From contig NZ_CANNGQ010000001.1 of NCBI RefSeq assembly GCF_947504145.1, positions 1,112,737-1,176,736 on the forward strand: DNA of 64,000 bases, read 5' to 3'. This document shows, piece by piece, positions 1-57,706 of this stretch. Source of the DNA: an uncultured Microbulbifer sp. (GTDB lineage Bacteria > Pseudomonadota > Gammaproteobacteria > Pseudomonadales > Cellvibrionaceae). The notes beneath the pieces are model-generated. The model worked only from the letters and a program-made list of their open reading frames with translations, did not search any database and was not told where the DNA came from. Both the position numbers and the translations under genes were made by a program. Position 1 is the stretch's first letter, and each line of letters begins with the position of its first letter.

Positions 1-99
1 GATTGGAGTTTTTCTTACCATGGAAACTTCGTATGTCATTTTATTGGCGGGAATACGGGCGGGGCTGGTGTGGCCAGTAGTGACCAAACCAGCCACTGA
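1..99 (+). CDS. 3' end of a probable orphan gene cut by the window start (likely the next cassette of the polB-tail array)
   Basis: Frame 1 is open from base 1 (DWSFSYHGNFVCHFIGGNTGGAGVASSDQTSH) to TGA at 97-99. It ends just before a polB 3' copy, in the same orientation as the other cassette genes. Confidence 0.4.
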   Translation, partial: DWSFSYHGNFVCHFIGGNTGGAGVASSDQTSH

Positions 100-125
100 T
101 GGGAAGAGTAGTTAGGAATCGATTT

Positions 126-206
126 TCAGTCGGTCGCGCCAAATAGCCCCAGCTGCCCATCTACTAAAGAATCAAAATCCAGATCGATGAAGGGCAGGAT
201 GGTATC
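126..206 (-). repeat. Displaced copy 2 of the polB 3' end
   Basis: Reverse strand encodes DTILPFIDLDFDSLVDGQLGLFGATD* versus real polB DAILPFIDLDFDSLVDGQLGLFEVTD*. Manual alignment to 1844-1924 gives 71/81 identical nt. Confidence 0.95.
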
Positions 207-247
207 TTCGGCCGCTAGATTCCGAAAACGACCTTCCTCCCGATTAC

Positions 248-613
248 TCAACGTTTACCATGTATTTGATGGACGTACAAACTGCAACTGCTTGCGCTGT
301 TCGGCGTTGTATGTGGACGGCAACGAGAAACTTCCGTTGCATTCTTGTAGCGCGCGTCGATAACGCAGGAACACAAGCCCAGTTGTCTCAACAGGTTTTC
401 AATCACACCGCTCGAAACGACCGTTGCAGGGATGATGTCGTTATTGTCATCCGCCGGGCCGATTTGGGTAACTTTTTCTACCACCGCGATCACCGCCTGT
501 TGGAATTCGGACTGCGGATTTTCGTCGCGGGCAGCCAGTGCGGGGCGGAATTCAGCGAAACTGGCGAATATTCTAGCACCCGAGCAGAAATACTCATCGC
601 GCCAAATTTTGCA
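248..613 (-). pseudogene. Possible decayed or start-less ORF fragment in the cassette array
   Basis: The minus frame is open from 613 to 248 (...EFRPALAARDENPQSEFQQAVIAVVEKVTQIG...) with no ATG; the first GTG is at 493. The overlapping + ORF 260-643 reads like its antisense shadow. Confidence 0.25.
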
Positions 614-683
614 CTAACTGGCATCAATTTACGCAACTGCTAGATTAAACTGAGTTTTCCCAGACCGTTTAGAGTGGCGAAAT

Positions 684-1232
684 ATGACAATATTGCCTGG
701 TAGACCTGACGCAAATACGGGACCTGAGGCGTTTCGATTTCATAAATTAGCCCAGTCATTTCTTGCGGATCTGGGCTTTAAACTTATCAACGACCCATCA
801 GTAATAATCAGCCCCTACCAGCAAACTCAGGCCACCTACCATTCCCCTTCTGGACTCTACATTTACACAGGGTTTGAGCCCGCCGACAGCAACGGTGCCT
901 GTATCACTTTTGGGCGAAGGTGGTCAGCCGGCAAATTTGGCTACGTACTTTCAAATAATTACTCGCTGTTTGCTGCGGAACAAGGCGTTGAACTTCCAAC
1001 GTCTTACACACTCGGGTATGGAAACGAAATCGATAACACCATCCGTCAAGTATTCAGCGACGTCGAGCGTACGCTACCCGGCATGCTCAGAAACATCGAA
1101 CTCAGCACTTTGCAAACTCTGGAAGAGTTACCCGGTGGAGCAGTAGACTGGGCGACGCGTTTATTTGGGCAGCCCTACAAAGATCAGGTTGAGATCAGCA
1201 AATTTGATCAAAACCTTCTTTGCAAAGATTAA
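684..1232 (+). CDS. Hypothetical protein (cassette gene A)
   Basis: 182 aa ATG ORF preceded by a purine-rich GAGTGG. Globular composition and no overlapping longer ORF. Ends 25 bp before polB 3' copy 1. Confidence 0.7.
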   Translation: MTILPGRPDANTGPEAFRFHKLAQSFLADLGFKLINDPSVIISPYQQTQATYHSPSGLYIYTGFEPADSNGACITFGRRWSAGKFGYVLSNNYSLFAAEQGVELPTSYTLGYGNEIDNTIRQVFSDVERTLPGMLRNIELSTLQTLEELPGGAVDWATRLFGQPYKDQVEISKFDQNLLCKD

Positions 1233-1257
1233 AGTCAGGAACGTTCCGGATCGTTGC

Positions 1258-1383
1258 TCAATCACTCACCTCAAACAGACCTCGCTGCCCATCCACTAAC
1301 AAATCAAAATCGAGATCGATAAACGGAAATATGGCATCCGCCACCGGCTTCAGCTGCTTGACGATATAGTGCCGGTAATCGAT
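1258..1383 (-). repeat. Displaced copy 1 of the polB 3' end
   Basis: Reverse strand encodes IDYRHYIVKQLKPVADAIFPFIDLDFDLLVDGQRGLFEVSD* versus polB VDYQHYIDKQLKPVADAILPFIDLDFDSLVDGQLGLFEVTD*. Manual alignment to 1844-1969 gives 105/126 identical nt, with many third-position changes. Confidence 0.95.
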
Positions 1384-1428
1384 CTGTAACTGTAATGATC
1401 TTGATGACCTAAGAGTGAGTAGCGCCAC

Positions 1429-1806
1429 ATGGTAAGCAAGTCTATGTATCGTTTATTGGTTATTACTTGGATAACTCTATTTGCAGGCTGCGCGCCGCCT
1501 AATGATTCAAGCGAGATTGAGATAACCGCAGTCAACGGTTCGAAAACAGACAACAACGAAATACAGTTCTGTTCGGATTTCACGGTTTCGGTAGAATCTA
1601 CTCAAAAATTCTTCAAGAAAGCAGAGCCAATATCGCTTAAGCAATTACATGATAACTACGACTACCTACCCTGCTTCTCGTACGGAACAGCCAATGTCGG
1701 TGATGAAAGCTGTTCTTGGGAGATGAGAGCGGGAAACACCGCAGAGCTACAGTGCGGCAATACGGTACAGTACTTCGCCTGTGACATCTGCTTGAACGCT
1801 GAATAA
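1429..1806 (+). CDS. Small Cys-rich predicted lipoprotein (cassette gene B)
   Basis: Basic N-terminus, hydrophobic stretch and lipobox LFAG-C. Six further Cys, including a C-terminal CDIC. Confidence 0.75.
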   Translation: MVSKSMYRLLVITWITLFAGCAPPNDSSEIEITAVNGSKTDNNEIQFCSDFTVSVESTQKFFKKAEPISLKQLHDNYDYLPCFSYGTANVGDESCSWEMRAGNTAELQCGNTVQYFACDICLNAE

Positions 1807-1843
1807 AAACGCCGCCAAGTCCGCTTTTTCGTCATACCAATGC

Positions 1844-4225
1844 TCAATCGGTTACTTCGAACAGCCCCAGCTGCCCATCCACTAAAGAATCAAAATCCAG
1901 ATCGATGAAGGGTAGGATGGCATCGGCCACGGGCTTCAGCTGCTTGTCGATATAGTGCTGGTAATCGACTGGTGACTGGCGGTAATCCACCGGCTCCGGG
2001 CCACTGAGGGTGATCACGTAGCGGATCCAGCCCTTGTTCTGATAGCGAGGTTCGAGCCCTTGCTGGCGGCGGTGTTCATCGGCCATTCTGGCCGCGCGCA
2101 CCTGGGGCGGTATGTTCTTTACGTACTGCTCAAGCTTGCGCCGCAGCCGCTTGCGATAGACCAACTGCTCATCCATCTCCCCTACCCGGGTTTTCTCCAC
2201 CGTCTCGCGGATATAGTCGGACGGGTCGTCACCCTTAAACACCATTCCGTAGAGCTTTGTCTGGAATTGCTTGGCCAATTCCGTCCAATCGCTGCGCACG
2301 GTTTCCAGGCCCTTGAATACGAGCTTTTCCTTATCCCCATTCACCACCAGGCCCGCATAGCGCTTCTTGGAGCCCGCCTCCGAGCCGCGAATAGTGGGCA
2401 TCAAGAAGCGCTGGTAGTGGGTTTCGAATTCCAGCTCCAGTTCGCACGCCAATGCCAACTCGTCTTTGAGCTTGTTCTGCCAGCGCGTGTTGATCTCACT
2501 CGCCAGGCCATTGCCGATCGTATCTGCCTCTTCCGGGCTGGGCTTGCCACTCAGCCAGACAAACGTCGAGTCGGTATCGCCGTAGATGACCTGATGACCA
2601 AGTTCCTCAATCCAGCGCGCCGTCTGCTGCATGATCTCGTGGCCGCGCAGGGTGATGGAGCTGGCCAGGCGCGTGTCGTAGAAACGGCAGCCTCCGCTTC
2701 CCAGCACCCCATAAAATGAATTCATGATAATTTTGATCGCCTGGGAGCGGGCGGCATCCTGCGCCTGCTTGGCAATGTCGCGCTCCGCCCAGAGGTTGGT
2801 AATGATGTCTGGCAGGAAATGCTTGTCGCGGGAAAAGCGCGCGCCGCGAAAACCGGGGATGCTGTTTCCGCCCACCCAGTCCTCGCTCTCAGCCTCAGAC
2901 TCGGCCTCAGCCAATCCCTCAATCAACCCAATAGGGTCGATCTTGAAAGTGCGGATAATGCTGGGATACAGGCTCTTGAAATCCAACACCAGCACGTTGT
3001 CGTACAGGCCCGGCCGAGAGTCCATCACATAGCCGCCTGGGCTGGCCAAGCCCCCATCGGCCGGCAGGTTGGGCGCTACATAGCGGCTGCGGTGTAGCTT
3101 GGGTAAATAGAGGTTGGTAAACGCCGCCACCGAGCCGCCGCTGCGGTCGAGCTCCAGGCCCGTGAGCTGTGCCCGCAGGCGCAGGTAATCCAGCAAGCGA
3201 GTGTGCTGGTAAATATCCCAAACCAGGCGGCAGTCTTCCAGGTTGTAGGCGGCGAGCTTGGGTTTGTTGTGGCGGAAGTCGTGTTCAATCGCCGCCAGGC
3301 GGTTGTCCACGTCTTCGGTGTCCTTGCCCCGCCCCAGCAACGTCTGGGCCACAAATTCCAGGCTGAAGCTTTCGAAGTTGTAGGTGGCGTTCTTCAGTCC
3401 GTCAATGCCGTCCAACACCACCCGCCCCGGCAGCGTCACAAAGCCCTGGTTGCCTTCGCGGCCATCTCGCCAGCGGGCGTCTTTGCCACCGCGCCCCAGC
3501 TTCAGGCGCAGGCCATGGCGCCCTGCCCGTTTCACCAGCAGCCGAAAATCAAAGTCCACCACCGCCCAACCGATGATGATGTCCGGGTCCAGAGATTGGA
3601 TTCTGGCTTCCAGAGCCTGAAGTAGCGCCCGTTCGTCATCCACCCAGTGGATAGTGGTGTCGGCGGCCTCCGGATTACCGACCATCAGCACCTCTTCTAC
3701 CCCATGGCCGTATAGACCAATGGAATACAACTCACCCTGGCCTGAGCACTCCACGTCCAGAGACACCACCTTGAAATCCGGCTGCACCTCGGCGCCCTTG
3801 AGGCGGACCTGCCGATACTCTGTATAGCCCTCTTTGGCCCGGGTCACGCCTTCAAAGTAGAGGCCACCGCGCACAAAGCGCTCCATCAGGTAACGGTCGT
3901 GGAGACGAAAATCTGCTTCAAATACCTCGATACCACGAGTTTGCAGCAGTCCCTGGGCCCGGCGGTGAGCATCGATGGTGGGGAAATACAGCATGGCCGC
4001 TTCCGCGCGACCAAAGGTCTGGAAGCCCAGCTGCTGCCAGTCGTGGGGGACGCCGGCCAGCGCCTCGGTTACCTGGGGCCGATCCGCCACCTTGACCATA
4101 AAGACCGGGCGCTCACCTTCAATAACCAGCTTGACCGGGCCCTCGGGCGTGGCCAGCCAGTAGTGGATACAGGTGCTGCCGCGCTGATCAAAGCTGTGGC
4201 GGGTGAGGAGGAATCCTTGGGGCAA
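1844..4225 (-). CDS. polB: DNA polymerase II (family B)
   Basis: Exonuclease motif SLDVECS. Polymerase motifs DFKSLYPS, KIIMNSFYG and YGDTDS. C-terminal beta-clamp motif QLGLF. Confidence 0.97.
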   Translation of the reverse strand: MPQGFLLTRHSFDQRGSTCIHYWLATPEGPVKLVIEGERPVFMVKVADRPQVTEALAGVPHDWQQLGFQTFGRAEAAMLYFPTIDAHRRAQGLLQTRGIEVFEADFRLHDRYLMERFVRGGLYFEGVTRAKEGYTEYRQVRLKGAEVQPDFKVVSLDVECSGQGELYSIGLYGHGVEEVLMVGNPEAADTTIHWVDDERALLQALEARIQSLDPDIIIGWAVVDFDFRLLVKRAGRHGLRLKLGRGGKDARWRDGREGNQGFVTLPGRVVLDGIDGLKNATYNFESFSLEFVAQTLLGRGKDTEDVDNRLAAIEHDFRHNKPKLAAYNLEDCRLVWDIYQHTRLLDYLRLRAQLTGLELDRSGGSVAAFTNLYLPKLHRSRYVAPNLPADGGLASPGGYVMDSRPGLYDNVLVLDFKSLYPSIIRTFKIDPIGLIEGLAEAESEAESEDWVGGNSIPGFRGARFSRDKHFLPDIITNLWAERDIAKQAQDAARSQAIKIIMNSFYGVLGSGGCRFYDTRLASSITLRGHEIMQQTARWIEELGHQVIYGDTDSTFVWLSGKPSPEEADTIGNGLASEINTRWQNKLKDELALACELELEFETHYQRFLMPTIRGSEAGSKKRYAGLVVNGDKEKLVFKGLETVRSDWTELAKQFQTKLYGMVFKGDDPSDYIRETVEKTRVGEMDEQLVYRKRLRRKLEQYVKNIPPQVRAARMADEHRRQQGLEPRYQNKGWIRYVITLSGPEPVDYRQSPVDYQHYIDKQLKPVADAILPFIDLDFDSLVDGQLGLFEVTD

Positions 4226-4284
4226 GAGGCTGTACCGGGTTGAGGTCTGGGTTGGGAATTGTGTTGGTGATGGACGCCATTCTA

Positions 4285-4300
4285 CTGGATAAATGAACAG
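4285..4300. promoter_or_regulatory. LexA (SOS) box upstream of polB
   Basis: CTG-GATAAATGAA-CAG (CTG-N10-CAG) about 60 bp upstream of the polB start. polB/dinA is a known SOS gene in E. coli. Confidence 0.8.
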
Positions 4301-4594
4301 ATATCAGCAACATCCAGACCTGTACCAGAAGCCCCTGCGACCCTTACCAGAGCAATGATGCATTGCCATCAAATATGACAGAAGAAAATTTCTGAGACGC
4401 TCAGAGTGTGGCGACCAAAACGCGTTACCCCCATACGAAACATCCAGCGCATACCCACGCACCACAACATGCAATCAACACACATTCGTCGCGTCTGAGT
4501 ACATTTTTGGCACCTAAAGCCAGTTGCGTCTCCGTACACCGAAAAAGGCTGTATTACACTTTTTAATTCATGGGTATAAAAGGAGTTACCTCGA

Positions 4595-5377
4595 ATGAAA
4601 CGGATTTTGAAATTTTCGCCTATCCTGGCGCCATTGGCTTTGGCGCTAAGCAGTGCCGCCTCGGCGAACCCCCTCGGCTTGACCGGACCACAGGACATGA
4701 TTGTCCGGGTCGGCGGCTATTACATTGAGCCCAATGACGACCAGGTTAGCTTTGTCGACGAGACCTTCGAGTATTTCGATGCGTTCCGCTCAAACGTTGA
4801 CCCAGGTTCCGAGTGGGGCTGGTATGGGAACCTCGAGTGGAAAGCGAACAAGCATTGGGGCATCGAGCTTGGCTATATGGATGGCGACAACCATACCAGC
4901 AGTCATGCTGACGGCTTTTTCACCTTCGGCTTCGGCGATGTCGACTATCGCGACGTGGTCAGTTTTGATGCCGACATCAGCACCCTGAGCCTGAAATACT
5001 ACCCCCTGGATGAGACCTGCATGGTTCAGCCCTATATAGGCGGTGGCATTAGCTATACCGACTTCGGTGAGGGCAGTCTTAGACGTGAGCTGCGGGACGA
5101 CCTGGCAGACTTTGGTCTGCGCGGTGACTTCGATATGGGGTATGCCTGGGGCTACACCTGGCAAATGGGTATGGATTTCAATTTCGGGCGCGATAGCTCC
5201 TGGCTGGTCAACGTCGCCGCAATGTACGCCAGATCCGAGACAGATCTGCGGGTACGGGTTTTTGACGACGTACCACCGCCCTCGGATATAGACCCTATTT
5301 TTGAGTCCTATTCCGGGGACTACAGCTATGATCCCTGGATGTTCAATCTGTCAGTGGGGTACAAATTCTCTTTCTGA
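4595..5377 (+). CDS. ompW: OmpW-family outer membrane beta-barrel protein
   Basis: Signal peptide, VRVGGYYIEP, HWGIELG, QPYIGGG, C-terminal DPWMFNLSVGYKFSF. Confidence 0.85.
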   Translation: MKRILKFSPILAPLALALSSAASANPLGLTGPQDMIVRVGGYYIEPNDDQVSFVDETFEYFDAFRSNVDPGSEWGWYGNLEWKANKHWGIELGYMDGDNHTSSHADGFFTFGFGDVDYRDVVSFDADISTLSLKYYPLDETCMVQPYIGGGISYTDFGEGSLRRELRDDLADFGLRGDFDMGYAWGYTWQMGMDFNFGRDSSWLVNVAAMYARSETDLRVRVFDDVPPPSDIDPIFESYSGDYSYDPWMFNLSVGYKFSF

Positions 5378-7863: not shown

Positions 7864-8679
7864 TTACCTCACTACTAATGATTTCAATATTGATGAACCA
7901 TCTGAAAATAAATTATATCCTTGGTCAAATACTAGTAGCACATTAGAAGTAAAAATCAGCGGTAACACACAGCAGGGTGCCGTAAGAAAAACCACCACAA
8001 AAAACCGACCTAAACTATTATGATATGCAAGCCTCTTCTTTAAAACTGCGTATGCATCACCAATATCAACCTTCTTGTTTTCAATAATTTTTTGTAAAAA
8101 AATTTTATCTTGGCTCAAGAACGGTTTTTCAGACTCATAGAGTTTATTATTACGCTCCCTCGCATTAATGCTATTCAACGCCTCTCTAGCTTGGTCGCGA
8201 AGCCCAATAAGACTATTAACTTCTAATTTGAAATCCTGCAAGGTCTTATAAGCATATATTTGGGGAGACAACAGCTTAAACAAAATCACGAAAACCAAAA
8301 GAGAAAGACCGCACAACCAGTACCCGTAAAAGATAGGAGTTAAGTACCTCTCTAATTCTGTTAGCTTTGCCGCTCTCACGATCAATGGTGACAAGGTGAA
8401 AATCAGTATGAAAATTGATAGCTTTTGATTAAAAGCAAGTGATGACCACGTATTCCAGTTGTCGATCGGCCCTTTCCGGTCACTAATAATCGAAGATATT
8501 AAACCCAAAAAAAATCCAGCAAAAAAAGTCAGTACAAAAAATAGATGCCTGGGATCATAATTTATACCATCGGCTTTAAACATCAACAAAATAACCACTG
8601 GAAGAGAGATCGCCGTAAACAAAGATATTAATATTCGCTTGACGTAATTTTTAAAAATTTTCCCGGCCACAAAATTCAT
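7864..8679 (-). CDS. Hypothetical AT-rich membrane protein (about 5 TM segments)
   Basis: 271 aa ORF. Four N-terminal hydrophobic helices, a charged soluble region, then a C-terminal helix. Co-oriented downstream of thsB. Confidence 0.75.
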   Translation of the reverse strand: MNFVAGKIFKNYVKRILISLFTAISLPVVILLMFKADGINYDPRHLFFVLTFFAGFFLGLISSIISDRKGPIDNWNTWSSLAFNQKLSIFILIFTLSPLIVRAAKLTELERYLTPIFYGYWLCGLSLLVFVILFKLLSPQIYAYKTLQDFKLEVNSLIGLRDQAREALNSINARERNNKLYESEKPFLSQDKIFLQKIIENKKVDIGDAYAVLKKRLAYHNSLGRFFVVVFLTAPCCVLPLIFTSNVLLVFDQGYNLFSDGSSILKSLVVR

Positions 8680-9006
8680 TTAACCCCGCTAATTTACTCA
8701 AAACCACATGAATCAAGTTGGACTTCAAACATACTCCGAACCGAGCATTCCAACTAAAAAACCGTCTACATGCAAGTACGACTCCATAATCGACGCAAAC
8801 CTTTGTTCGCCCAGCACCGAAGGTGTATAGCCGATTAATTTATTAAACATTTTTCAACCTTGACTCAAGGAACGTGCCTAAAAACCAGACTGGCAATGTT
8901 GGCGAAAGCCATATAATTATTTCCATTAGTGCCTCTGATAATTTGACCCCCTTTATTAAAGAAATCCTTCAGGGCAAGCTAAAGCTTGCCCCTAGCAACT
9001 TATTAT

Positions 9007-9507
9007 TTATGCAACTTGGTATGAATTACGCACTGCTATCGCTTCTTCAATCCAATCTGCAATATTCTCACTTATATGACTATAAACGCCTTGGCTTGTA
9101 ATTTGCGGCGGATTTTTGAGCTTTACAATAGAAGACATTTTCTTTCCATTTATTGTGAAATCTTCAAACGGATTCCGCCCTTCCTTACCCTGCTCGCCAG
9201 ATGAATTTTTAAGTTTGTGTACCTGAATTCCTAGCACCCCCTTTCCAGATTCCCAGGCCTTTTTAATTTCATATTTAATCCATTTCCTTCCTGCCGTTTT
9301 TTCACCAACAAGAACGATCACACATGACTTTCCCAACATCTGGCCATCGATCCAATTTTGGATAGCCTTATCCCCTCCCTTTGTGACTTCTTCCCAGTCA
9401 TTATCGCTAGCAGGCTTATTTCCCTCTACCGAACCAATATTTCTGACAGTAGAAGCTCGCCAGTTATCATTAGAATAATGGAAACTATAAAATGCTTTTC
9501 TCGCCAT
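9007..9507 (-). CDS. thsB: Thoeris ThsB TIR-domain protein (DUF1863-like)
   Basis: RKAFYSFHY, DNWRA, IQNWIDGQM, VIVLVGEKTAGRKWIKYEI (catalytic Glu retained). Directly downstream of thsA. Confidence 0.9.
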   Translation of the reverse strand: MARKAFYSFHYSNDNWRASTVRNIGSVEGNKPASDNDWEEVTKGGDKAIQNWIDGQMLGKSCVIVLVGEKTAGRKWIKYEIKKAWESGKGVLGIQVHKLKNSSGEQGKEGRNPFEDFTINGKKMSSIVKLKNPPQITSQGVYSHISENIADWIEEAIAVRNSYQVA

Positions 9508-9518
9508 AAACCTTCTCC

Positions 9519-10964
9519 TTATTTTGTGAGTTCACCAATAAATTCAACTAAATCCTGAATTTTCGAATCTAACGATGTATTTTCATCGGATAACTTCTCC
9601 AAATATGAGCGGGCCCTACTATGGCCAGGAAAATACTTATCAACCGATGGAATTATTCTTTCAAAAATCTCCTTCGCTGCATAGTGCGTTGAAGCAACTG
9701 GAATACACAAGTTTCCAAAAGAATGAGAAATTTCAAACTCTCGAATCACGCCACCAGCAGTAACCACCTCACCATCCGCCTCTTTGTTACCAAAAAGAAA
9801 TATCGAAATCCCTGAAAGGGAAATCATCTTATGCCGGTATTCATCCCAAAGATCAGATAACTCTTTATTTCCAGATTTAAACTGAGGAAATGGCCTTAAA
9901 ATTAACTGCGAATCAGAATACCTTAACGGTTTGTCGTATATAGCTTCCAGAGCGCCATTAATAACTGAACTACCAACTCCCCAGCCAAACCCATTAACAA
10001 TTCGATAATTATTTTCAATTAATGCTCTAGATAGCTTGTGTATAAACTCGACTGCATTCAGCCTTTCAATTGGCGCATAGACTTCTGCACTCCCCGATAT
10101 GAAAATCGTTCTCTTTTTAAACCGGGACTCAATCTCACATAGAATTTCCGCTATTTCGCCATACTCATTTATTAGCAGAGTTTTTATACCATATCTTTTG
10201 AGGTCATTTATTATCAACACCTGCTTTCTACAACTGTAATCATAAGTCGCCTGATCGGGGTTGTCGGCATCTCCAAGTTTAGGTCGCTTTGAAATACAAT
10301 AATGCTGCTTTTTATTACCAGAAAATCTAAAATTCAGGCGGCTCAACACATAATCAAGATTCGGATCTGTAAAGCTAAAACCCAGAAAAAGAAAGGTCTT
10401 TGTGGTTAGCTCGCCAGTAAGGGCATTAATAAATGGTTCATGAGTCTGGTGATACTGTTCATACTGTTCTTTTGTAATTATCGCATCATGGGGGCACGAG
10501 ACATCACCATGCATTTTAAAAATTACGACATCCCTTTTGGGCCTATTATTTAATAGTTGTTTAACATTGTGCTTTACATCAGAAACTTTGCCCTCTGCTA
10601 GAAACGCCTTTTCAATAAGCTCATCATAATTCGTAGTCCATATAGAGCTAATAGGCAACCTAGCAAGGATTCGATGATTTTCAGTTTCTTCGGTTTCCTC
10701 AACAAACTCCTCTAAAATCTTGCGGCTTACTTTGGATCGTGTCCGATTTTCATTTACATGGAACTGCGCCAATGACACCAAGTCAGATTCCTGCTCGACA
10801 TCCAATCCTAAGTCATAAGCAATTTCGCTCATCAATTCTTGCCAATTTACAAAACCAGCTGGAATTGAAAGACCGGCCCCAGCAAAAATTGCAGCGGTAC
10901 CTTCATTTAAGTCTTTCACGTAGTCCCGAATAAATATCTCAATCTCTCTATCAAATTCCATCAA
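9519..10964 (-). CDS. thsA: Thoeris ThsA (SIR2 NADase + SLOG/STALD), type I
   Basis: SIR2 motifs IFAGAGLS, WTTNYD, KMHG, FLGFSFTDP. SLOG-like C-domain ISGS, GFGWGVG, RPFPQ, FGNK, GVIREF. Confidence 0.9.
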   Translation of the reverse strand: MMEFDREIEIFIRDYVKDLNEGTAAIFAGAGLSIPAGFVNWQELMSEIAYDLGLDVEQESDLVSLAQFHVNENRTRSKVSRKILEEFVEETEETENHRILARLPISSIWTTNYDELIEKAFLAEGKVSDVKHNVKQLLNNRPKRDVVIFKMHGDVSCPHDAIITKEQYEQYHQTHEPFINALTGELTTKTFLFLGFSFTDPNLDYVLSRLNFRFSGNKKQHYCISKRPKLGDADNPDQATYDYSCRKQVLIINDLKRYGIKTLLINEYGEIAEILCEIESRFKKRTIFISGSAEVYAPIERLNAVEFIHKLSRALIENNYRIVNGFGWGVGSSVINGALEAIYDKPLRYSDSQLILRPFPQFKSGNKELSDLWDEYRHKMISLSGISIFLFGNKEADGEVVTAGGVIREFEISHSFGNLCIPVASTHYAAKEIFERIIPSVDKYFPGHSRARSYLEKLSDENTSLDSKIQDLVEFIGELTK

Positions 10965-11165
10965 TGCAATTCCGTCATCAAACTAAAAAACGGGGTTCAA
11001 ATAGACCGTCTTAAACACGTTCTCGATCTTCTTCTTATCCGTCACACTCTAATCTTTCCCTTTCGGCGACAACGAACAGCTATGCTGGCGTCGACAATAT
11101 AGATTCTAATTTATTCAAAAAAATTGGGACATACCACCATTTAACATCTCGTGCAGCCAATCAAG

Positions 11166-13061
11166 TTACCGTTTCACAATTGATCCAGCCGTATTGTTAC
11201 CGAGAGAAACTAGCATTTCGCTCAGCTGATTTTTTCGGTGGTGGCTCACCAACAATTGTTCCTGCGCGCGTGTCAAACCAACATACATACGGCGCACATC
11301 ACCAGCCAAATCAACATCAACATCTTCCTGGTAGCCAGATTGATAACTGGCATCGAGAATAATCACCGTATCGAACTCCAAGCCTTTACTACTCGGAATC
11401 GGCATAATGCTGACACTTTCAGAATTTGGGTCATAACGTTTTTTAAACTCACTGGAAGCGAGCCACGCGCAGGGAATTCGTTCTTTTTTCAACGCAGCAG
11501 CCATAAACTTCCCAGCACTTCCTCCCGGGTACAGCACGGCCATATCTTTCCATGCCTTTCCTTTGCTATTCCAGGCCTTCAGACAGCGCACTGCATACTC
11601 AACTTCCTGAACTAGGGTTTCAACGCACTTTACATAGGGTTCAGCACCGCTCTTACCCGCAGCCTCTGGCTCAACGAGAGGGATTTCGGAATCAGGATTT
11701 TGAGAAAAGTAGTCCTTGGAAAATTGATACGCGAAGGCAAGGATTTCTCGTGTATTACGGTAATTCAATCGAAGTATCGTGGTCCGCCCCTGGGCCTTGA
11801 TCCCCACGCTCGACAAGCTAAACCCGAGACTTGATTTTCGTTTGTAAATAGACTGTGCATCGTCGTACAGCAGAAGAAGTGAATCCGTCTCGGGGTCAAC
11901 CATTTGAGAAATCAATGTTAACCACTCGGCTTCAAAATCATGCCCTTCATCGATCAGCACGGCTCCGTACTGCCCTTTGGGGATACGCCCCTTCTCAACG
12001 GCATCAATTACGGAAAACACTTGACGCTCCCAAACCGGAACATCCATATCGATCAGATCAACGTGGTAAGTTCGCAGCTGCTCGCCACACCAATCGTGAA
12101 AGTGATAAACCTGAACTTTATCGTTTATCCCCTTTTCAGTGATAAAACTACGCAAGCGAGCAGCCAAGGTAATGTTGAAACAAAGTACCAATATAGGCTT
12201 ATTTAACGCATCGGCCAGATAGAGACATCTATACCCCAAAATCAATGTTTTGCCCGAACCGGCTACACCGTGAACAACGCGATGGCCATCCCCCAAACTG
12301 CGGGCCAGTTGCTCTTGCTGGATATCCATGATTTTTACAATGTCTGGCATGCTTTCGGCCAATGACGCCGTAGGCATATCTTCACCGCATTCCTCTGTAC
12401 CAAATAAATCATCCTGGGCCGTCGCAATACGGATCTCAGGAAATAAATGCCAGCGAATTCGATCTATCTGAGGCAGCGTCAGTTTATTGCCAAATTGATA
12501 GTTGAACATTCCCCATAGCCGTTCCTGAAATTCCTCAGGCGTAACGCTATCGGACATTTCATCCTGGCAGATCAACAGATGCCCTGGCAGCAACTTGTGG
12601 CGAAATTCTTCTGGTATGCCTTTATCAATTTGATTGCGCGTGATATTGGAAAATACCGCACCATACCCGTAGGGAAAACACAATTTGCCCTTGTACTTTC
12701 CCAATTGCTGCTTTAACTGGGGGTCGCGCTCAAGCACCTGTAAAACCTGATAGCTGCACTGCCTGGCCTGCTCAATCGGGTTACTTACCGTTTTGCGACC
12801 GCTGGAGGTTTCAAGATCAACTTCAGCATGGCTTACACGTTTGATACTGGATGCCTTCCAGTCTTTAACCTCTAAAAAAAGAATACCTCTTGCGGGATGC
12901 AGAATTATGAAATCCGGGTAGCGACGCTTTCCACCCAAGGGAATATCAAACCAACAGAGGTAATCAACTTCCAGCAATGCTTCCAAGCGCCGGGCAAAGC
13001 GCTTCTCGCCGGAGGTCATTTTGGAAAGGCAGGAACTGAGGGATGGGATTAATTTCGCCAT
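11166..13061 (-). CDS. NERD nuclease domain fused to UvrD-like SF1 helicase
   Basis: N-terminal PDFIILHPARGILFLEVKDW (PD-(D/E)xK). Walker A GVAGSGKT, Walker B IDEGHD, NYRNT, SKGLEFD, YVGLTRA. Confidence 0.88.
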   Translation of the reverse strand: MAKLIPSLSSCLSKMTSGEKRFARRLEALLEVDYLCWFDIPLGGKRRYPDFIILHPARGILFLEVKDWKASSIKRVSHAEVDLETSSGRKTVSNPIEQARQCSYQVLQVLERDPQLKQQLGKYKGKLCFPYGYGAVFSNITRNQIDKGIPEEFRHKLLPGHLLICQDEMSDSVTPEEFQERLWGMFNYQFGNKLTLPQIDRIRWHLFPEIRIATAQDDLFGTEECGEDMPTASLAESMPDIVKIMDIQQEQLARSLGDGHRVVHGVAGSGKTLILGYRCLYLADALNKPILVLCFNITLAARLRSFITEKGINDKVQVYHFHDWCGEQLRTYHVDLIDMDVPVWERQVFSVIDAVEKGRIPKGQYGAVLIDEGHDFEAEWLTLISQMVDPETDSLLLLYDDAQSIYKRKSSLGFSLSSVGIKAQGRTTILRLNYRNTREILAFAYQFSKDYFSQNPDSEIPLVEPEAAGKSGAEPYVKCVETLVQEVEYAVRCLKAWNSKGKAWKDMAVLYPGGSAGKFMAAALKKERIPCAWLASSEFKKRYDPNSESVSIMPIPSSKGLEFDTVIILDASYQSGYQEDVDVDLAGDVRRMYVGLTRAQEQLLVSHHRKNQLSEMLVSLGNNTAGSIVKR

Positions 13062-13483: not shown

Positions 13484-14653
13484 CTAAAAGCGGTCACCGG
13501 GCACCCGCACCCACCCTTCCATCAGAATCCGCGCACTGCGGCTCATGATGGCCTTGGTTGCAGTCCACTCACCGTTGGCAATCTCCGCTTCCGCACCAAC
13601 CCGCAAGGTGCCGGACGGATGGCCAAAGTTCACCACACTGCGCTCCCCTCCCCCGGCAGCCAGATTGACCAGGGTGCCGGGGATGGCAGCGGCGGTGCCG
13701 ATGGCCACCGCAGCGGTGCCCATCATGGCGTGGTGCAGTTTGCCCATGGACAGCGCGCGCACCAGCAGGTCGATATCACCCGCGTCCACTTGCTTGCCGC
13801 TGGAGGCCGTATAACTCTTGGGTTCTGCGACAAACGCGACCTTGGGGGTATGCTGGCGAGCGGCTGCCTCTTCCACCGTTGCGATCAGGCCCATCTTCAC
13901 CGCGCCGTGGGCGCGGATGTTTTCGAACATGGCCAGAGCCTTGTCGTCACCATTGATGGCTTCCTGCAGTTCGGTGCCGGTGTAACCGATATCCGCAGCG
14001 TTGACGAAGATGGTCGGGATGCCGGCGTTGATCATGGTGGCCTTTAGCGTACCGACGCCCGGCACTTCCAGGTCGTCCACCAGGTTGCCGGTGGGGAACA
14101 TGGCCCCTTCGCCATCCGCCGGGTCCATGAATTCGATCTGCACTTCGGCCGCCGGGAAGGTAACGCCGTCCAGTTCGAAATCACCGGTTTCCTGCACTTC
14201 CCCATTGGTGATGGGTACGTGGGCGATGATGGTTTTCTTGATGTTGGCCTGCCAGATACGCACGGTGCAGATGCCACGCGCCGCATCCACAAAACCGCTG
14301 TTGATGGCGAAGGCACCGACGGCAGCGGTGAGGTTGCCGCAGTTGCCGGACCAGTCCACGAACGGCTTGTCGATGGAGACCTGACCGAACAGGTAATCCA
14401 CGTCGTGCTCCGGCTGCTCGCTCTTGGACAGGATGACGGTTTTGCTGGTGCTGGACGTGGCTCCGCCCATGCCGTCGGTCTGCTTGCCGTAGGGATCGGG
14501 GCTGCCGATCACCCGCAGCAGCAGGTTGTCGCGCGCGGCGCCCGGAACCTGTGCGGATTCCGGGAGGTCCTGCAGGCGGAAGAACACGCCCTTGCTGGTG
14601 CCGCCACGCATGTAGGTGGCGGGCACTTTGATTTGTGGGGCAAAAGCGGTCAT
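13484..14653 (-). CDS. prpF: 2-methylaconitate cis-trans isomerase
   Basis: YMRGGTSKG, GGATSSTSK, GNCGN, HHAMMGT. Overlaps the acnD stop. Confidence 0.96.
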   Translation of the reverse strand: MTAFAPQIKVPATYMRGGTSKGVFFRLQDLPESAQVPGAARDNLLLRVIGSPDPYGKQTDGMGGATSSTSKTVILSKSEQPEHDVDYLFGQVSIDKPFVDWSGNCGNLTAAVGAFAINSGFVDAARGICTVRIWQANIKKTIIAHVPITNGEVQETGDFELDGVTFPAAEVQIEFMDPADGEGAMFPTGNLVDDLEVPGVGTLKATMINAGIPTIFVNAADIGYTGTELQEAINGDDKALAMFENIRAHGAVKMGLIATVEEAAARQHTPKVAFVAEPKSYTASSGKQVDAGDIDLLVRALSMGKLHHAMMGTAAVAIGTAAAIPGTLVNLAAGGGERSVVNFGHPSGTLRVGAEAEIANGEWTATKAIMSRSARILMEGWVRVPGDRF

Positions 14654-17250
14654 TGCGCGGCACCTTCGGCTTCGAGGAAGTCATTGGCGAAGCGCTGCAG
14701 TACACCGCCGGCGTCGTAGATAGAGACTTCTTCGGCGGTATCCAGGCGGCATTTCACCGGTACTTCTACTGTCTCACCGTCTTTGCGGTGAATCAGTAGG
14801 GTCAGGGTTGCGCCCGGGGTGCGGTCGCCGAGTACGTCGAAGGTTTCGGTACCGCCGATGCCCAGGGTCTCGCGGGTAGTGCCCGGCTGGAATTCCAGCG
14901 GCAGCACGCCCATGCCGATCAGGTTGGTGCGGTGAATGCGTTCGAAGCCTTCCGCCACAATCGCTTCCACACCAGCGAGGCGCACACCTTTGGCGGCCCA
15001 GTCGCGGGAGGAGCCCTGGCCGTAGTCGGCGCCGGCAATAATGATCAGCGGCTGCTTGCGGTCCATGTAGGTTTCGATGGCTTCCCACATGCGGGTGACC
15101 TTGCCTTCCGGCTCCACGCGGGCAAGAGAGCCCTGTTTCACTGCACCGTTGTCCTCACGCACCATTTCATTCAACAGTTTCGGGTTGGCGAAGGTGGCGC
15201 GCTGGGCGGTGAGGTGATCGCCGCGGTGCGTCGCGTAAGAGTTGAAGTCCTCTTCCGGCAGGCCCATTTTCGCCAGGTATTCACCGGCGGCACTGCTGGC
15301 CAGGATGGCGTTGGACGGCGACAGGTGGTCGGTGGTGATGTTGTCACCCAGCACCGCCAGCGGGCGCATGCCTTTCAGAGCGCGCTCACCTGCGAGTGCG
15401 CCTTCCCAGTACGGTGGGCGGCGGATGTAGGTGCTCTGCGGGCGCCAGTGGTACAGCGGCTCGCCCTTCTCTGCTTCCGCTTTATTGAGGTCAAACATCG
15501 GGATGTAGACCTCGCGGAACTGCTCGGGCTTCACGCTCTGTTTGACGATCGCGTCGATCTCTTCGTCGCTCGGCCAGATATCTTTCAGGGTCACCGGGTT
15601 GCCGTCTTTGTCGTGGCCCAGTACATCTTTTTCGATATCGAAGCGGATGGTGCCGGCGATGGCGTAGGCCACTACCAAGGGCGGCGAGGCCAGGAAGGCC
15701 TGCTTGGCGTACGGGTGGATACGGCCGTCGAAGTTGCGGTTGCCGGATAGTACGGCGGTGGCGTACAGGTCGCGGTCGATCACTTCTTTCTGGATCTTCG
15801 GGTCCAGTGCGCCGCTCATACCGTTACAGGTGGTGCAGGCAAAGGCGACCACGTCGAAGCCCTGTTGCTGCAGTTCCGGCAACAGGTTGGCTTCTTCCAG
15901 GTACATTTTTACGGTCTTGGAGCCCGGTGCCAGGGAGGTTTTCACCCAGGGCTTGCGGGTCAGGCCGAGCTTATTGGCGTTGCGCGCAATCAGGCCCGCG
16001 GCAATCATGTTGCGCGGGTTGCTGGTGTTGGTGCAGCTGGTGATCGCAGCGATGATTACCGCACCGTCCGGCATCTCGCCTTCTTTTTCTTCCCACTCTT
16101 TGGCGATGCCACGGTTACCCAATTCGGATACCGGCAGCAGTGCGTGCGGGTTGGATGGGCCGGCGAGGTTGCGGCCTACAGAAGAGAGGTCGAACTTGAG
16201 TACGCGCTCGTACTCGGCATTCTTCAGGCTGTCTGCCCACAGGCCGGTTTCTTTCGCGAACTTTTCAACCAAAGCTACCTGCTCGTCGTCGCGGCCGGTG
16301 AGTTTCAGGTAGTCGATGGTCTGCTCGTCGATGGCGAACATGCCTGCGGTGGCACCGTATTCGGGCGTCATGTTGGCGATGGTGGCGCGGTCGCCCAGGC
16401 TCAGGCTGGAGGCACCTTCACCGAAGAATTCGAGATACGCGCCCACTACGCGCTCGCGACGCAGGAATTCGGTCAGGGCCAGTACCATGTCGGTGCCGGT
16501 GATGCCGGGCTGCAATTTGCCGGTCAATTCGACGCCGACGATGTCGGGCAGGCGCATGTAGGAGGCGCGGCCGAGCATGACGCTTTCGGCTTCAAGACCA
16601 CCCACGCCCACGGAGATTACGCCGAGCGCATCCACCATCGGGGTGTGGCTGTCGGTGCCGACGCAGGTATCTGGAAAGGCGACGCCGTCTTTTTGCTGCA
16701 CCACCGGAGACATTTTCTCCAGGTTGATCTGGTGCATGATGCCGTTGCCGGGCGGGATGACGTCGACGTTTTCAAACGCGGTTTTGGTCCAGTTGATGAA
16801 GTGGAAGCGGTCTTCGTTGCGGCGCTCTTCCACGGCGCGGTTCTTTTCGAAGGCATCTTTTTCAAAACCGGGGTGTTCGACGGCCAGGGAGTGGTCGACG
16901 ATCAGCTGGGTGGGTACCACCGGGTTTACTTTGGCGGGGTCACCACCCTTTTCGGCGATGGCGTCGCGCAGGCCGGCGAGGTCCACCAGTGCGGTCTGGC
17001 CGAGAATATCGTGGCAGACGACGCGCGCAGGGAACCAGGGGAAGTCGAGGTCGCGCTTGCGCTCGATGATTTGTTTCAGGGCTGCGGTGAGGTCTTCGGG
17101 TTCGCAGCGGCGTACGAGGTTCTCCGCGAGGATGCGGGAGGTGTACGGGAGTTTTTCGTAGCTGCCCGGCTGGATTTTTTCGACGGCTTCGCGGGTGTCG
17201 AAATAATCGAGGTCTGTGCCGGGGAGTTTTTTGCGGAATTCGGTGTTCAT
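14650..17250 (-). CDS. acnD: Fe/S-dependent 2-methylisocitrate dehydratase
   Basis: Aconitase motifs ARVVCHDILG, DSHT, SCTNTSN, ACTTCNG, TTDHLSP. Lies between prpC and prpF. Confidence 0.96.
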   Translation of the reverse strand: MNTEFRKKLPGTDLDYFDTREAVEKIQPGSYEKLPYTSRILAENLVRRCEPEDLTAALKQIIERKRDLDFPWFPARVVCHDILGQTALVDLAGLRDAIAEKGGDPAKVNPVVPTQLIVDHSLAVEHPGFEKDAFEKNRAVEERRNEDRFHFINWTKTAFENVDVIPPGNGIMHQINLEKMSPVVQQKDGVAFPDTCVGTDSHTPMVDALGVISVGVGGLEAESVMLGRASYMRLPDIVGVELTGKLQPGITGTDMVLALTEFLRRERVVGAYLEFFGEGASSLSLGDRATIANMTPEYGATAGMFAIDEQTIDYLKLTGRDDEQVALVEKFAKETGLWADSLKNAEYERVLKFDLSSVGRNLAGPSNPHALLPVSELGNRGIAKEWEEKEGEMPDGAVIIAAITSCTNTSNPRNMIAAGLIARNANKLGLTRKPWVKTSLAPGSKTVKMYLEEANLLPELQQQGFDVVAFACTTCNGMSGALDPKIQKEVIDRDLYATAVLSGNRNFDGRIHPYAKQAFLASPPLVVAYAIAGTIRFDIEKDVLGHDKDGNPVTLKDIWPSDEEIDAIVKQSVKPEQFREVYIPMFDLNKAEAEKGEPLYHWRPQSTYIRRPPYWEGALAGERALKGMRPLAVLGDNITTDHLSPSNAILASSAAGEYLAKMGLPEEDFNSYATHRGDHLTAQRATFANPKLLNEMVREDNGAVKQGSLARVEPEGKVTRMWEAIETYMDRKQPLIIIAGADYGQGSSRDWAAKGVRLAGVEAIVAEGFERIHRTNLIGMGVLPLEFQPGTTRETLGIGGTETFDVLGDRTPGATLTLLIHRKDGETVEVPVKCRLDTAEEVSIYDAGGVLQRFANDFLEAEGAAQ

Positions 17251-17281
17251 CGTTTTTCACCCAGTCGGGTCGTTGTGTGGC

Positions 17282-17395
17282 GGCACTGCTGGCGGGTAGC
17301 CCGTTGCTGGACACGCCGTATACCCATCCATGGGGGCTTGGCTGCGAGATCCCTCTCGCAGACAGTCCAGCAAAGGGCTACCCGTCATCAGCGCC
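17282..17395. repeat. REP/MITE-like palindromic element between prpC and acnD
   Basis: 31-bp inverted arms (17282-17312 and 17365-17395, 27/31 matching) enclose the core GGACACGCCGTATACCCATCCATGGGGGCTT and an inner hairpin CTGCGAGA-TCCC-TCTCGCAG. Confidence 0.7.
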
Positions 17396-17426
17396 TTCGC
17401 ATCAATCTATGCAGCTCCGATCAAAC

Positions 17427-18551
17427 TCAACGTTCGGAAATCGGAGTTACCTTGCGCAGATCCGGGCCGGTGTATTCCGCGCTTGGGCGGATGATGCGGT
17501 TGTCGGCGCGCTGTTCGAATACGTGGGCGGCCCAGCCGGTTACGCGGGACATGACGAAGATCGGCGTAAACAGTTTGGTGGGGATACCCATGAAGTGGTA
17601 CGCGGAGGCGTGGAAGAAGTCGGCGTTACAGAACAGCTTCTTCTCGCGCCACATGACTTCTTCACAGCGTACGGATACCGGGTACAGTACGTCGTCGCCC
17701 ACGTCGGCGGCGAGTTTTTCGGACCACTGTTTGATGATGGCGTTGCGCGGGTCGGATTCGGTGTAGACCGCGTGGCCGAAGCCCATGATCTTTTCCTTGC
17801 GCTCGAGCATGCCCATCAGTTCTTTTTCTGCTTCGTCGGCAGAGGAGAAACGCTCGATCAGTTCCATGGCTGCTTCGTTGGCGCCGCCGTGCAGCGGGCC
17901 GCGCAGGGAGCCGATGGCGCCGGTGATGCAGCTGAACAGGTCAGACAAGGTGGAGGCACATACGCGCGCGGTGAACGTTGAGGCGTTGAACTCGTGCTCT
18001 GCGTACAGGATCAGGGATACGTTCATTACCTGCGCGTGCAGGTCGTTCGGTTTTTCATCGCGCAGCATGTGCAGGAAGTGGCCGCCGATGGAGTCGTCGT
18101 CGGTTTCGGTTTCGATGCGCACGCCGTCGTGGCTGAAGCGGTACCAGTAACAAATGATGGATGGGAACGCAGCCAGCAGGCGGTTGGCGCGGTCCTGTTG
18201 CTGGTCGAAAGACTCTTCGCCTTCCAGGTTGCCCAGCATGGAGCAGCCGGTACGCATTACATCCATCGGGTGTGCGTCGGCGGGGATGCGCTCGAGCACT
18301 TCGCGCAGTGCCACGGGCAGGCCGCGCATGGTTTTCAGCACGCCTTTGTAGTCCGCCAGCTGGGCGGTGGTGGGCAGTTCGCCGTTGAAGATCAGGTAGG
18401 CGACTTCTTCGAACTCGCAGTTTTCTGCCAGGTCTTTTACGTCGTAGCCGCAGTAGGTCAGGCCGGAGCCGGATACGCCTACGGTGGACAGTGCGGTTTT
18501 ACCGGCTACCTGGCCACGCAGGCCGGCTCCGCTCAGTTTTTTCTCTGCCAT
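17427..18551 (-). CDS. prpC: 2-methylcitrate synthase
   Basis: LSGAGLRGQVAG, YAEHEFNASTF, GPLHGGANE, GFGH, NADF. Confidence 0.96.
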   Translation of the reverse strand: MAEKKLSGAGLRGQVAGKTALSTVGVSGSGLTYCGYDVKDLAENCEFEEVAYLIFNGELPTTAQLADYKGVLKTMRGLPVALREVLERIPADAHPMDVMRTGCSMLGNLEGEESFDQQQDRANRLLAAFPSIICYWYRFSHDGVRIETETDDDSIGGHFLHMLRDEKPNDLHAQVMNVSLILYAEHEFNASTFTARVCASTLSDLFSCITGAIGSLRGPLHGGANEAAMELIERFSSADEAEKELMGMLERKEKIMGFGHAVYTESDPRNAIIKQWSEKLAADVGDDVLYPVSVRCEEVMWREKKLFCNADFFHASAYHFMGIPTKLFTPIFVMSRVTGWAAHVFEQRADNRIIRPSAEYTGPDLRKVTPISER

Positions 18552-18602
18552 CGTTCATTCCCCTATTTTTGATTTGAGTTCAGTTCGATTTATTTTCCAC
18601 TC

Positions 18603-19481: not shown

Positions 19482-19520
19482 AACTGCCTCTTCTTTCATT
19501 AACTTCGCGTAAATTTCGTA

Positions 19521-20276: not shown

Positions 20277-20340
20277 TTTTCCGCCCCTCTCGCACCGTCA
20301 CCCGTTCGAATCGTAGCGATTCTGTTGTGCACCAACCAAT

Positions 20341-57409: not shown

Positions 57410-57706
57410 AAGCTTTTGATTTTTAATAGAAAATTTACTGCTTTCGCACCTTCGGCAGCAGCCGAATTCAACTGTGCGCTGCGCGAATATATATGCTTCG
57501 CCCCCAGTGCGGTCAAGCAAGCGTCACAAATTGATGACCCAATTGTGCGCTCGGTAACCGTTTGTGACCGGCTATCTGACCCTTGGTTCACACCGAATCG
57601 GATAGGGCTTGGCCACGCTTCGCGGCCAAGCCATGTCCACAGCGAACCCCTGGGCGCGGTTAATTGCGACCGCTAAAAAAGTAGACCACTTCTGTTCGGC
57701 AAGCGG

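Follow-up and report, generated by a model that had tools for sequence, protein, structure and literature searches.

The DNA directly behind polB, the gene for DNA polymerase II, in an uncultured Microbulbifer sp. holds a stack of relics in which displaced 3′ ends of polB itself alternate with small genes and gene fragments. We analyzed this locus within a 64-kb stretch of the genome (64,000 nucleotides (nt) of contig NZ_CANNGQ010000001.1, forward-strand positions 1,112,737–1,176,736; hereafter the window) and set it among about 19 distinct polB loci, Microbulbifer or Microbulbifer-like, that we gathered from genomes, NCBI and metagenomes; compared loci carry the labels L001–L091. It is moderately probable, in our judgement, that the locus is a gene-turnover hotspot free of mobile genetic elements (MGEs), in which polB serves as a homology anchor and imports end in illegitimate joins that push older polB ends outward, by homology-facilitated illegitimate recombination (HFIR). 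An earlier note, made from the letters of the window (the original prediction), had proposed that polB is an anchor at which a new end and its cargo enter while the old end moves outward. This is the best explanation that we found; it draws on collinear junctions in relatives, purifying selection on the displaced ends and the lack of a recombinase, and from these we infer the mechanism itself.

The live polB gene (4225–1844, minus strand) is intact and encodes a protein of 793 amino acids (aa) that matches Pfam DNA_pol_B, DNA_pol_B_exo1 and DNApolII_N and whose nearest relatives are Microbulbifer PolB proteins (identity up to 92%). Outward from its stop codon follow orf125, a relic of an amidase gene, displaced polB tail 2, orf182, a fragment of an AstE-like gene, displaced polB tail 1 and the end of a membrane-protein gene. 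G+C content is 0.56–0.64 in polB versus 0.42–0.49 in the cassettes. As in other Microbulbifer, PolB of the window carries a four-codon extension beyond the clamp-binding motif QLGLF. Across the genus, this extension measures two to four codons (GVTD, EVTD, GVSD and others), and PolB of other genera ends at the motif itself (QLxLF). A short palindrome with the genus consensus ACCGAT-TGAGC-ATCGGT spans the polB stop codon, and the ~10–13 nt 3′ of the stop are conserved regardless of which gene comes next (window region 1832–1870 and the polB ends of L001–L008, L028, L036 and L082–L091).

Tail 2 (1258–1392, minus strand) consists of the last 44 codons of polB with their TGA and is 83% identical to 1844–1978. 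Tail 1 (126–228, minus strand) is clear over the last 27 codons and TGA (126–206; 71/81 nt, or 88%, identical to 1844–1924), and a fainter homology with a 3-nt insertion probably extends it to about 228. A repeat search recovered these ends as a family (126–206, 1258–1338 and 1844–1924; identities of 88% (71/81) and 75–83%) and as a 138-nt pair (1255–1392 versus 1841–1978; 83%); beyond this family, it gave no long dispersed repeats in the window. Read on the plus strand, each of the three ends opens with TCA, hence with TGA in the direction of polB, and a 25-nt core of the tail occurs at exactly three sites in 64 kb versus 0.00 expected from shuffled sequence. The original prediction had placed recurring polB ends, each with its own TGA, at 126–206 and 1258–1383; these searches confirm both copies, with tail 2 reaching further, to 1392. 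The translations of the displaced copies end in ILPFIDLDFDSLVDGQLGLFGATD and IDYRHYIVKQLKPVADAIFPFIDLDFDLLVDGQRGLFEVSD, each followed by the stop. Tail 1 retains an intact QLGLF motif and lies inside a 41-codon open reading frame (ORF); in tail 2 the motif is broken (QRGLF). The short ORFs at 126–251 and 1258–1428 are relics of polB and should not be annotated as genes.

The differences between the displaced tails and the live gene are mostly synonymous. Over 42 codons, the live tail and tail 2 differ by 14.5 synonymous and 8.5 non-synonymous changes (dN/dS of 0.11, P = 8e-5 against neutrality), and over 27 codons, the live tail and tail 1 differ by 7 and 5, respectively (dN/dS of 0.18, P = 0.013). 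A local duplication with one copy drifting neutrally predicts that ~35% of differences are synonymous, versus 22/35 observed (combined P = 0.0009; tail 2 alone, P = 0.0085). The tails therefore once belonged to working polB genes and diverged under purifying selection before they were stranded, which upholds the earlier claim that the synonymous excess does not fit a neutral local duplication. Between tail 1 and the live tail, the differences are concentrated in the last 23 nt (3/58 versus 7/23, Fisher P = 0.0045). Displaced tails also have lineage-specific synonymous variants in common with their own live tail, namely GATTCTTTAGT in the window, GAACTGG...CAGTCTGG in M. halophilus (L006) and GCCTTTCAT in M. 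mangrovi (L036). The partner alleles were therefore those of close relatives, or the copies have exchanged sequence since.

Each displaced tail, together with the DNA on its outer side, matches a junction that is intact in another species. The segment 956–1392, which includes orf182 and tail 2, is collinear at 83% with orf182 and the live polB tail of M. elongatus (L082), in which orf182 is convergent with polB and lies directly against its live end. The segment 2–206, which includes the membrane-protein gene end and tail 1, is collinear with the intact polB/membrane-protein gene junction of M. zhoushanensis and M. yueqingensis (L007 and L002), where the membrane-protein gene directly follows polB, and also with L083. 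Because of this collinearity, we conclude that each tail and its outer DNA were once a real polB end and its neighbor. The orf125 segment (1414–1851) is likewise collinear with an amidase–orf125 pair in L083, L084 (M. donghaiensis) and L087 (a metagenome contig); in the window, just the final codons of the amidase survive. The junction between the polB end and orf125 is present in a further, independent metagenome contig (L091).

A survey across Microbulbifer, which the original prediction had suggested, showed that the pattern recurs: displaced polB tails are present in 7 of the ~19 loci, with two tails in the window, and at least 12 different genes lie immediately downstream of polB. The tails of M. 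halophilus and M. mangrovi have lost their 3′ ends, the latter lying behind a 2.2-kb insert with SBP56-like and membrane-protein genes. L028, a metagenome-assembled genome that matches L088 at 99% identity, has its tail beyond an island of 7.7 kb that contains sulfatase, oxidoreductase, hydrolase, epimerase and MerR genes. The tail of L087 carries an internal stop and a 10-nt deletion, L091 has a tail as well, and L083 retains a 17-nt vestige of the stop-codon end beside orf125. No displaced polB tail was found in 70 genome and ~46 metagenome polB loci of other genera. The outer flanks are drawn repeatedly from AstE-like, two-component and membrane-protein genes. The genes between the copies had been described as all convergent with polB, which is correct for the window and does not extend to relatives as a rule.

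The 5′ end of polB is scarred in the same way. Displaced heads lie upstream of live polB, co-oriented with it, in L090 (1085–1300), M. halophilus (4855–5221) and M. magnicolonia (L085, 7333–7551). The L090 head covers aa 1–72 and shares 95.5% identity with the live head of the same locus; this head and the M. halophilus head sit ahead of a cluster of TonB-dependent receptor, response regulator and histidine kinase genes. An inverted repeat with a 61-nt spacing (TTAGGGGGCAG...CTGCCCCCTAA) follows the L090 head. M. elongatus also carries a 72-nt internal piece of polB (8157–8229; codons 382–405, 100% aa identity to window PolB) 2.4 kb downstream of the live gene, between a LysR gene and a DUF1240 gene. 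The polarity is uniform: heads lie upstream, tails lie downstream, and all polB fragments are co-oriented with polB, as overlapping replacement would lead one to expect.

The same holds for a neighboring gene. An AstE/AspA-like (Peptidase_M14-like) gene, assigned by the Pfam match of the full-length homolog, is the next conserved gene downstream of polB in most relatives. The window contains no full copy of it, and tblastn detected a frameshifted 3′ fragment between orf182 and tail 1 (244–555, minus strand; from ~aa 183 to the stop). This fragment matches aa 183–285 of the 311-aa M. mangrovi protein at 54%, and its C-terminal TAQAVAVC..Y continues in another frame to the stop at 244–246. Displaced AstE-like tails are present in at least five loci, starting at ~aa 183 in the window, 189–199 and 238 in L002/L007, 245 in L084 and 279 in L003, and M. 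elongatus has an AstE-like remnant with an internal deletion. The fragments lie at 17677–17964 and 20223–20438 in L002, 17881–18211 and 20489–20692 in L007, 19151–19237 in L003 and, on the reverse complement, 9725–9904 in L084; the cargo between them includes OsmC, RIO1 kinase and PurT genes.

Two other loci have an altered polB. In M. donghaiensis (13958–20339), only codons 1–90 of polB remain, next to the gene for a Y1 (IS200/IS605-type) transposase; the locus has defense-like genes with LmuB_C, MC3 and CTD7 domains, and two full AstE-like genes lie in the same 20 kb. In M. magnicolonia, an apparent truncation of polB at aa 597 was withdrawn as a candidate, as it is a full-length gene (10001–12360) split by a frameshift near codon 597 and annotated as 597 aa and 149 aa. 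Uniform nucleotide identity marks it as either a pseudogene or the product of a sequencing error, and the same genome encodes another full-length polB elsewhere, at the unrelated locus L005.

Both intact cassette genes of the window are convergent with polB. An uncharacterized 182-aa protein is encoded by orf182 (684–1232, plus strand), identified as an ORF with homologs in Microbulbifer only; the M. elongatus copy is truncated, and M. pacificus has a copy at an unrelated locus. A small Cys-rich predicted lipoprotein with the lipobox LFAGC is encoded by orf125 (1429–1806, plus strand), whose homologs are 61–70% identical and come from ~7 Microbulbifer genomes or contigs, in most cases behind an Amidase_2 gene; dN/dS between orf125 and its homologs is ~0.3. 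Alignment with L083 and L084 shows that the last ~7 codons of this amidase gene (..SSATW and stop) persist at 1411–1435 (plus strand) and overlap the orf125 start codon by 7 nt, an arrangement identical to that of the intact pairs in relatives. Typically, orf125 is the second gene of such an overlapping pair (ATGGTAA), behind a ~200-aa Amidase_2 (peptidoglycan amidase) gene; intact amidase genes are present in L083 (pair at 3239–4218), L084 (9360–10339) and L087 (6535–7553). We speculate that the amidase and the lipoprotein might act as an enzyme/inhibitor or effector/immunity pair, for which the family libraries give no support. Neither orf125 nor orf182 matched Pfam, NCBIfam or PADLOC. Their AlphaFold2 models (predicted local distance difference test (pLDDT) of 53 each) are too poor to judge, and Foldseek gave no match in the PDB with E < 0.1 for orf182.

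At the left window edge, tblastn identified the 3′ end of a conserved membrane-protein gene (1–115, plus strand, stop at 113–115) that runs off the window and is convergent with polB. It is 81% identical to aa 169–194 of a 197-aa M. mangrovi protein, whose gene adjoins LuxR-type response regulator and histidine kinase genes in relatives. Further left, outside the window, we would expect response regulator, histidine kinase and DUF2306 genes and then a full AstE-like gene, the order of L002, L007 and L090. The original prediction had read this end as an orphan gene ending at 99, which we correct here. Its inventory of cassettes holds for orf125 and orf182 and lacked the AstE-like fragment and the amidase relic. 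Nor does each event bring a single passenger gene, as had been suggested: the amidase and orf125 arrived as a pair of which the amidase was later lost, inserts of 2 kb and 7.7 kb occur elsewhere, and the AstE-like fragment is evidence of larger imports that were overwritten afterwards.

We next consider where the displaced tails begin. Tail starts are maximum-likelihood change-point estimates of where polB homology begins, and positions are in nt counted back from the end of the polB stop codon. Tail 2 of the window starts at −125 to −135 and the L087 tail at −132 to −136; those of L028, L036, L091 and L006 start at −104 to −127, −73 to −99, −60 to −95 and −68 to −82, respectively; tail 1 of the window starts at about −81 to −100 and the L083 vestige at about −10. 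These break-points are neither one fixed site nor uniform, and they fall into at least four classes (~−10, −80, −105 and −135). The cassette-side flanks beside the −80/−105 tails are unrelated to each other. L087 and L091, by comparison, have an identical cassette-side junction (amidase upstream sequence joined to CAGTCCCCG; amidase joined to CAGTC...) in two different downstream backgrounds, and tail 2 of the window starts within ~10 nt of that junction position. The 20-nt filler that separates the amidase relic from tail 2 was compared with the L087 junction and shows no similarity to it (P ~0.97). The motif GGGGGCAG was likewise rejected as a junction mark: it shows no overall enrichment, and the window lacks it. 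L090 has this motif at its head junction, and L002/L007 have it behind the polB stop.

These features suggest a sequence of steps. DNA from related Microbulbifer lineages would enter the cell and pair with resident polB by RecA-type homologous recombination, and its far end would be joined illegitimately (HFIR) or through a second short patch of homology, for example an older displaced tail. Where the far join falls inside resident polB, the import would supply a complete new polB end with its cargo and strand the last 10–140 nt of the resident gene downstream; a mirror-image event at the 5′ end would strand a head. Repeats of such events and later deletions would stack the relics, and the AstE-like fragment and the amidase relic would be what is left of earlier cargo overwritten by later imports and deletions. 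The sequences themselves show the anatomy of the locus, its collinearity with junctions that are intact in relatives, the recurrence and polarity of the relics, selection on the tails before stranding and the lack of recombinase genes nearby. Dependence on RecA, the way in which DNA enters the cell, illegitimate joining, microhomology at the joins and the order of events are what we infer. For the window, the starting state may have been that of M. zhoushanensis and M. yueqingensis, with the membrane-protein gene immediately behind polB. An import ending just past the AstE-like gene would then have stranded tail 1, and an import carrying orf182 would have overwritten the 5′ part of the AstE-like gene. 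An import with the amidase–orf125 pair would have stranded tail 2, and a deletion would finally have removed the amidase.

Several observations weigh against HFIR at a polB anchor. The start intervals of window tail 1, L036, L091 and L006 all take in ~−80, those of L087/L091 and window tail 2 begin within ~10 nt of −135, and in our reading of the alignment window tail 1, L036 and L091 have a CAGCGGC variant in common just upstream of −80, which would fit a preferred site. Microhomology was not shown at any join, as the nearest parent sequences are only 75–90% identical and the joins are thus not resolvable. Within polB no mosaic signal was detectable at this divergence; sliding-window identity against 11 relatives gave no clear switch of nearest relative, and the last 150 nt of polB are no closer to genomes that share a cassette, in comparisons with distant relatives (84–88% nt identity). 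Finally, in each event either tail would fit as the resident or as the imported one. The clustering of break-points might also be explained by an old displaced tail acting as a second homology arm during cassette transfer, or by illegitimate joins preferring the one G+C-rich patch of the tail.

Because the break-points cluster, we retain as an unlikely alternative that the tails are scars of site-specific integration. Islands with a polB-tail-like attP, either non-autonomous or with a decayed integrase like cis-mobilizable elements (CIMEs), would have integrated into the polB 3′ end through a tyrosine or serine recombinase encoded elsewhere or since lost, and the tails would be attR sites left by tandem accretion. 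Direct repeats of a gene 3′ end around an island are a textbook sign that an element has entered a protein-coding gene, as for phage 21 and e14 at icd and for the integrative and conjugative element (ICE) ICESt1 and CIME at fda. The clusters near −80/−105 and near −135 occur in lineages with different outer flanks, and the junction shared by L087 and L091 across two downstream backgrounds also speaks for this explanation. It would, however, have to account for at least four classes of polB break-point, the vestige at ~−10, the heads, the internal fragment and five AstE-like break-points, and for the mutually unrelated flanks on the cassette side of the −80/−105 tails. Unequal tail lengths had been taken as evidence against a fixed att core; the clusters, seen in several lineages, weaken that argument and leave some probability for a site-specific enzyme acting in trans.

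Searches for such an enzyme near polB, and for its element, returned nothing. As the original prediction had noted for the window, no recombinase is visible: Pfam gene lists and Pfam scans of unannotated ORFs for 20 Microbulbifer loci, one of them with the 7.7-kb island, gave neither an integrase nor a transposase nor any other recombinase within 10 kb of polB. A heuristic motif and tblastn scan of the polB loci also gave no tyrosine recombinase, which is weak evidence as the XerD query was approximate. The nearest mobility genes are a fragment of an IS3-type helix-turn-helix gene at the L083 contig end and the Y1 transposase gene, 1.7 kb from the polB remnant of L084. No Microbulbifer-like polB tail was found in IMG/VR viral contigs or in phage or plasmid records, a search that did not take in Microbulbifer genomes outside the polB loci.

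A variant of the polB-anchor model, which we put forward only tentatively and consider rather unlikely, is that the displaced tails act as portable homology arms. The polB body and a tail of 80–140 nt would bracket a cassette as in a natural knock-in, allowing insertion by RecA alone into any related genome whose polB is intact, and the popping out of circles through recombination between the two tails. This would explain the junction that L087 and L091 share in different backgrounds and the start of window tail 2 within ~10 nt of it. If true, it would make the locus a platform for cassettes that resembles an integron yet encodes no recombinase itself.

A purely local origin, by tandem or slipped duplication of the polB end followed by deletion, insertion and neutral decay and with no imported ends, seems improbable. 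The lineage-specific synonymous variants shared with the live tails and the co-orientation of every fragment with polB would both fit it. Against it, the synonymous excess is too large for one neutrally decaying copy, at tail 2 and in combination, and the DNA between the copies is unrelated cargo with a G+C content below that of polB. The cargo also has homologs at other loci or in other arrangements among relatives, and for each tail, the tail and its outer flank form an intact junction in another species.

Still less probable is that the tail copies are retained for a function, as small QLGLF clamp-binding peptides or as regulatory or terminator elements for the convergent cassette genes. 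The intact motif of tail 1 within its 41-codon ORF would suit such a role, and it is contradicted by the broken motif of tail 2, the internal stop and 10-nt deletion of the L087 copy and the loss of the 3′ end from the L036 and L006 tails. Neither a promoter-like site nor a convincing terminator rose above chance in positions 1–5000, where Rfam gave no match, and DNA folding of both strands of the three tails showed no unusual or attC-like fold (z-scores of −0.3 to 0.9). An assembly artifact, a collapsed or chimeric join at a repeat, is hardly credible, given that the repeats (81–138 nt, 12–25% diverged) are too different to mislead an assembler, that the same junction types occur in independent assemblies (polB end–orf125 in L091; orf125–amidase–tail in L087) and that a public metagenome contig matches 1776–1926 exactly.

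Among public runs, only one marine metagenome run contains 6% of the window words; it yields short contigs, among them this one of 151 nt. In public run X1, a marine metagenome, polB (window 1844–4300) is covered at a word depth of 500–2000 by many contigs of 85–99% identity, with hardly any coverage of the cassettes. That sample therefore contains many related Microbulbifer strains that differ in what lies downstream of polB.

Upstream of polB, the window carries a defense island (9007–13061, 5–9 kb from polB), and 8001–12000 has a G+C content of 0.405 versus ~0.57 elsewhere. It comprises a Thoeris type I pair on the minus strand, ThsB TIR (9007–9507) and ThsA SIR2-STALD (9519–10964; PADLOC ThsA1, E = 8.5e-199), followed in the same island by a NERD-UvrD helicase gene (11166–13061, minus strand; PADLOC candidate C3a187, E = 5e-161). 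With this island upstream and the cassettes downstream, both flanks of polB are variable. Elsewhere in the window, tandem 15–18-nt repeats (GC[TC]TTTTT[CT]TTCGC-like) at 54675–54784 lie within a 952-aa ORF (54662–57520, minus strand) and are likely to code for a repeat region rich in Lys and Ala.

Hotspots of gene gain that are free of MGE genes are common, and the entry of DNA into them has mostly been inferred from statistics. At the polB locus, physical scars record single events, their order and their end points. If HFIR at polB is the right explanation, the genus offers a natural series for the frequency of one-sided homology with an illegitimate join versus a clean double crossover, and for measuring whether short duplicated gene ends help cassettes to spread. 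The polB locus also shows that arrays of orphan 3′ ends occur outside polymorphic toxin loci, at which selection for immunity genes is the usual explanation for them. The process is a known one; what is new is its setting in a housekeeping repair gene, the scarring of both gene ends and of a neighboring gene, and an unusually legible stack of relics.

Several known systems resemble the polB locus in part. Integron arrays also place single-gene cassettes between repeats of ~80–140 nt, in one orientation in the window and with newer cassettes nearest the anchor. Unlike them, the polB locus has no intI or attI, its repeats are gene ends with no attC-like fold, and the orientation of its cassettes is mixed in relatives. 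With integrase islands, ICEs and CIMEs it shares direct 3′-end repeats that bracket an insert, a target gene that stays intact and tandem accretion that yields several displaced ends. It differs in that we found no integrase (20 loci), no single break-point and no attP-bearing element, and in that the neighboring gene and the polB 5′ end are scarred likewise.

Closer parallels are found among MGE-less systems, so that an earlier statement that the locus does not belong to a described system was too strong. Many hotspots of horizontal gene transfer lack mobile elements, undergo recombination in the flanking core genes and tend to lie beside repair genes (Oliveira, Touchon, Cury & Rocha 2017, PMC5635113). 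The polB locus shows the same high turnover between conserved flanks (polB on one side, AstE-like or two-component genes on the other) with no mobility genes, and it has a Thoeris defense island on the other side of polB. The model for those hotspots is a clean, scarless double homologous recombination, whereas polB has been repeatedly duplicated in part, a record of events that stopped within it. In HFIR, a single homologous anchor is required and the other end is joined at 3–10 bp; the process depends on RecA and is 100- to 1000-fold rarer than homologous transformation (PMC6382021, which summarizes the studies of de Vries & Wackernagel 2002, Prudhomme 2002 and Meier & Wackernagel 2003). The polB locus would resemble it in a one-sided homologous anchor and an illegitimate join, which would explain why break-points vary, cargo is foreign and recombinase genes are absent. 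Experiments define HFIR by its dependence on RecA and by 3–10 bp of microhomology at the join.

The nearest relatives in architecture are the arrays of Rhs, contact-dependent inhibition (CDI; orphan cdiA-CT/cdiI modules) and type VI secretion system (T6SS) genes. According to the account in PMC5361080 (Kirchberger et al. 2017), HFIR has already been proposed for the displacement of Rhs C-termini (Jackson et al. 2009) and for the sequential displacement of T6SS effector–immunity modules. In these arrays, as at polB, new 3′ ends and their cargo are inserted beside a constant anchor gene and older ends are pushed downstream as co-oriented orphans; no integrase is found in either case, and HFIR with an upstream homologous anchor has been proposed. 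The anchor here is a DNA repair polymerase instead of a polymorphic toxin, its ends are near-identical in protein (isofunctional) instead of alternative toxic tips, and its cargo carries no toxin or immunity signature in Pfam, NCBIfam or PADLOC. The polB orphans are decaying, with no obvious selection keeping them, and heads are displaced upstream as well. The polB locus works like the Rhs, CDI and T6SS arrays and, given the polymerase anchor, the isofunctional ends and the cargo free of such signatures, is not a member of them.

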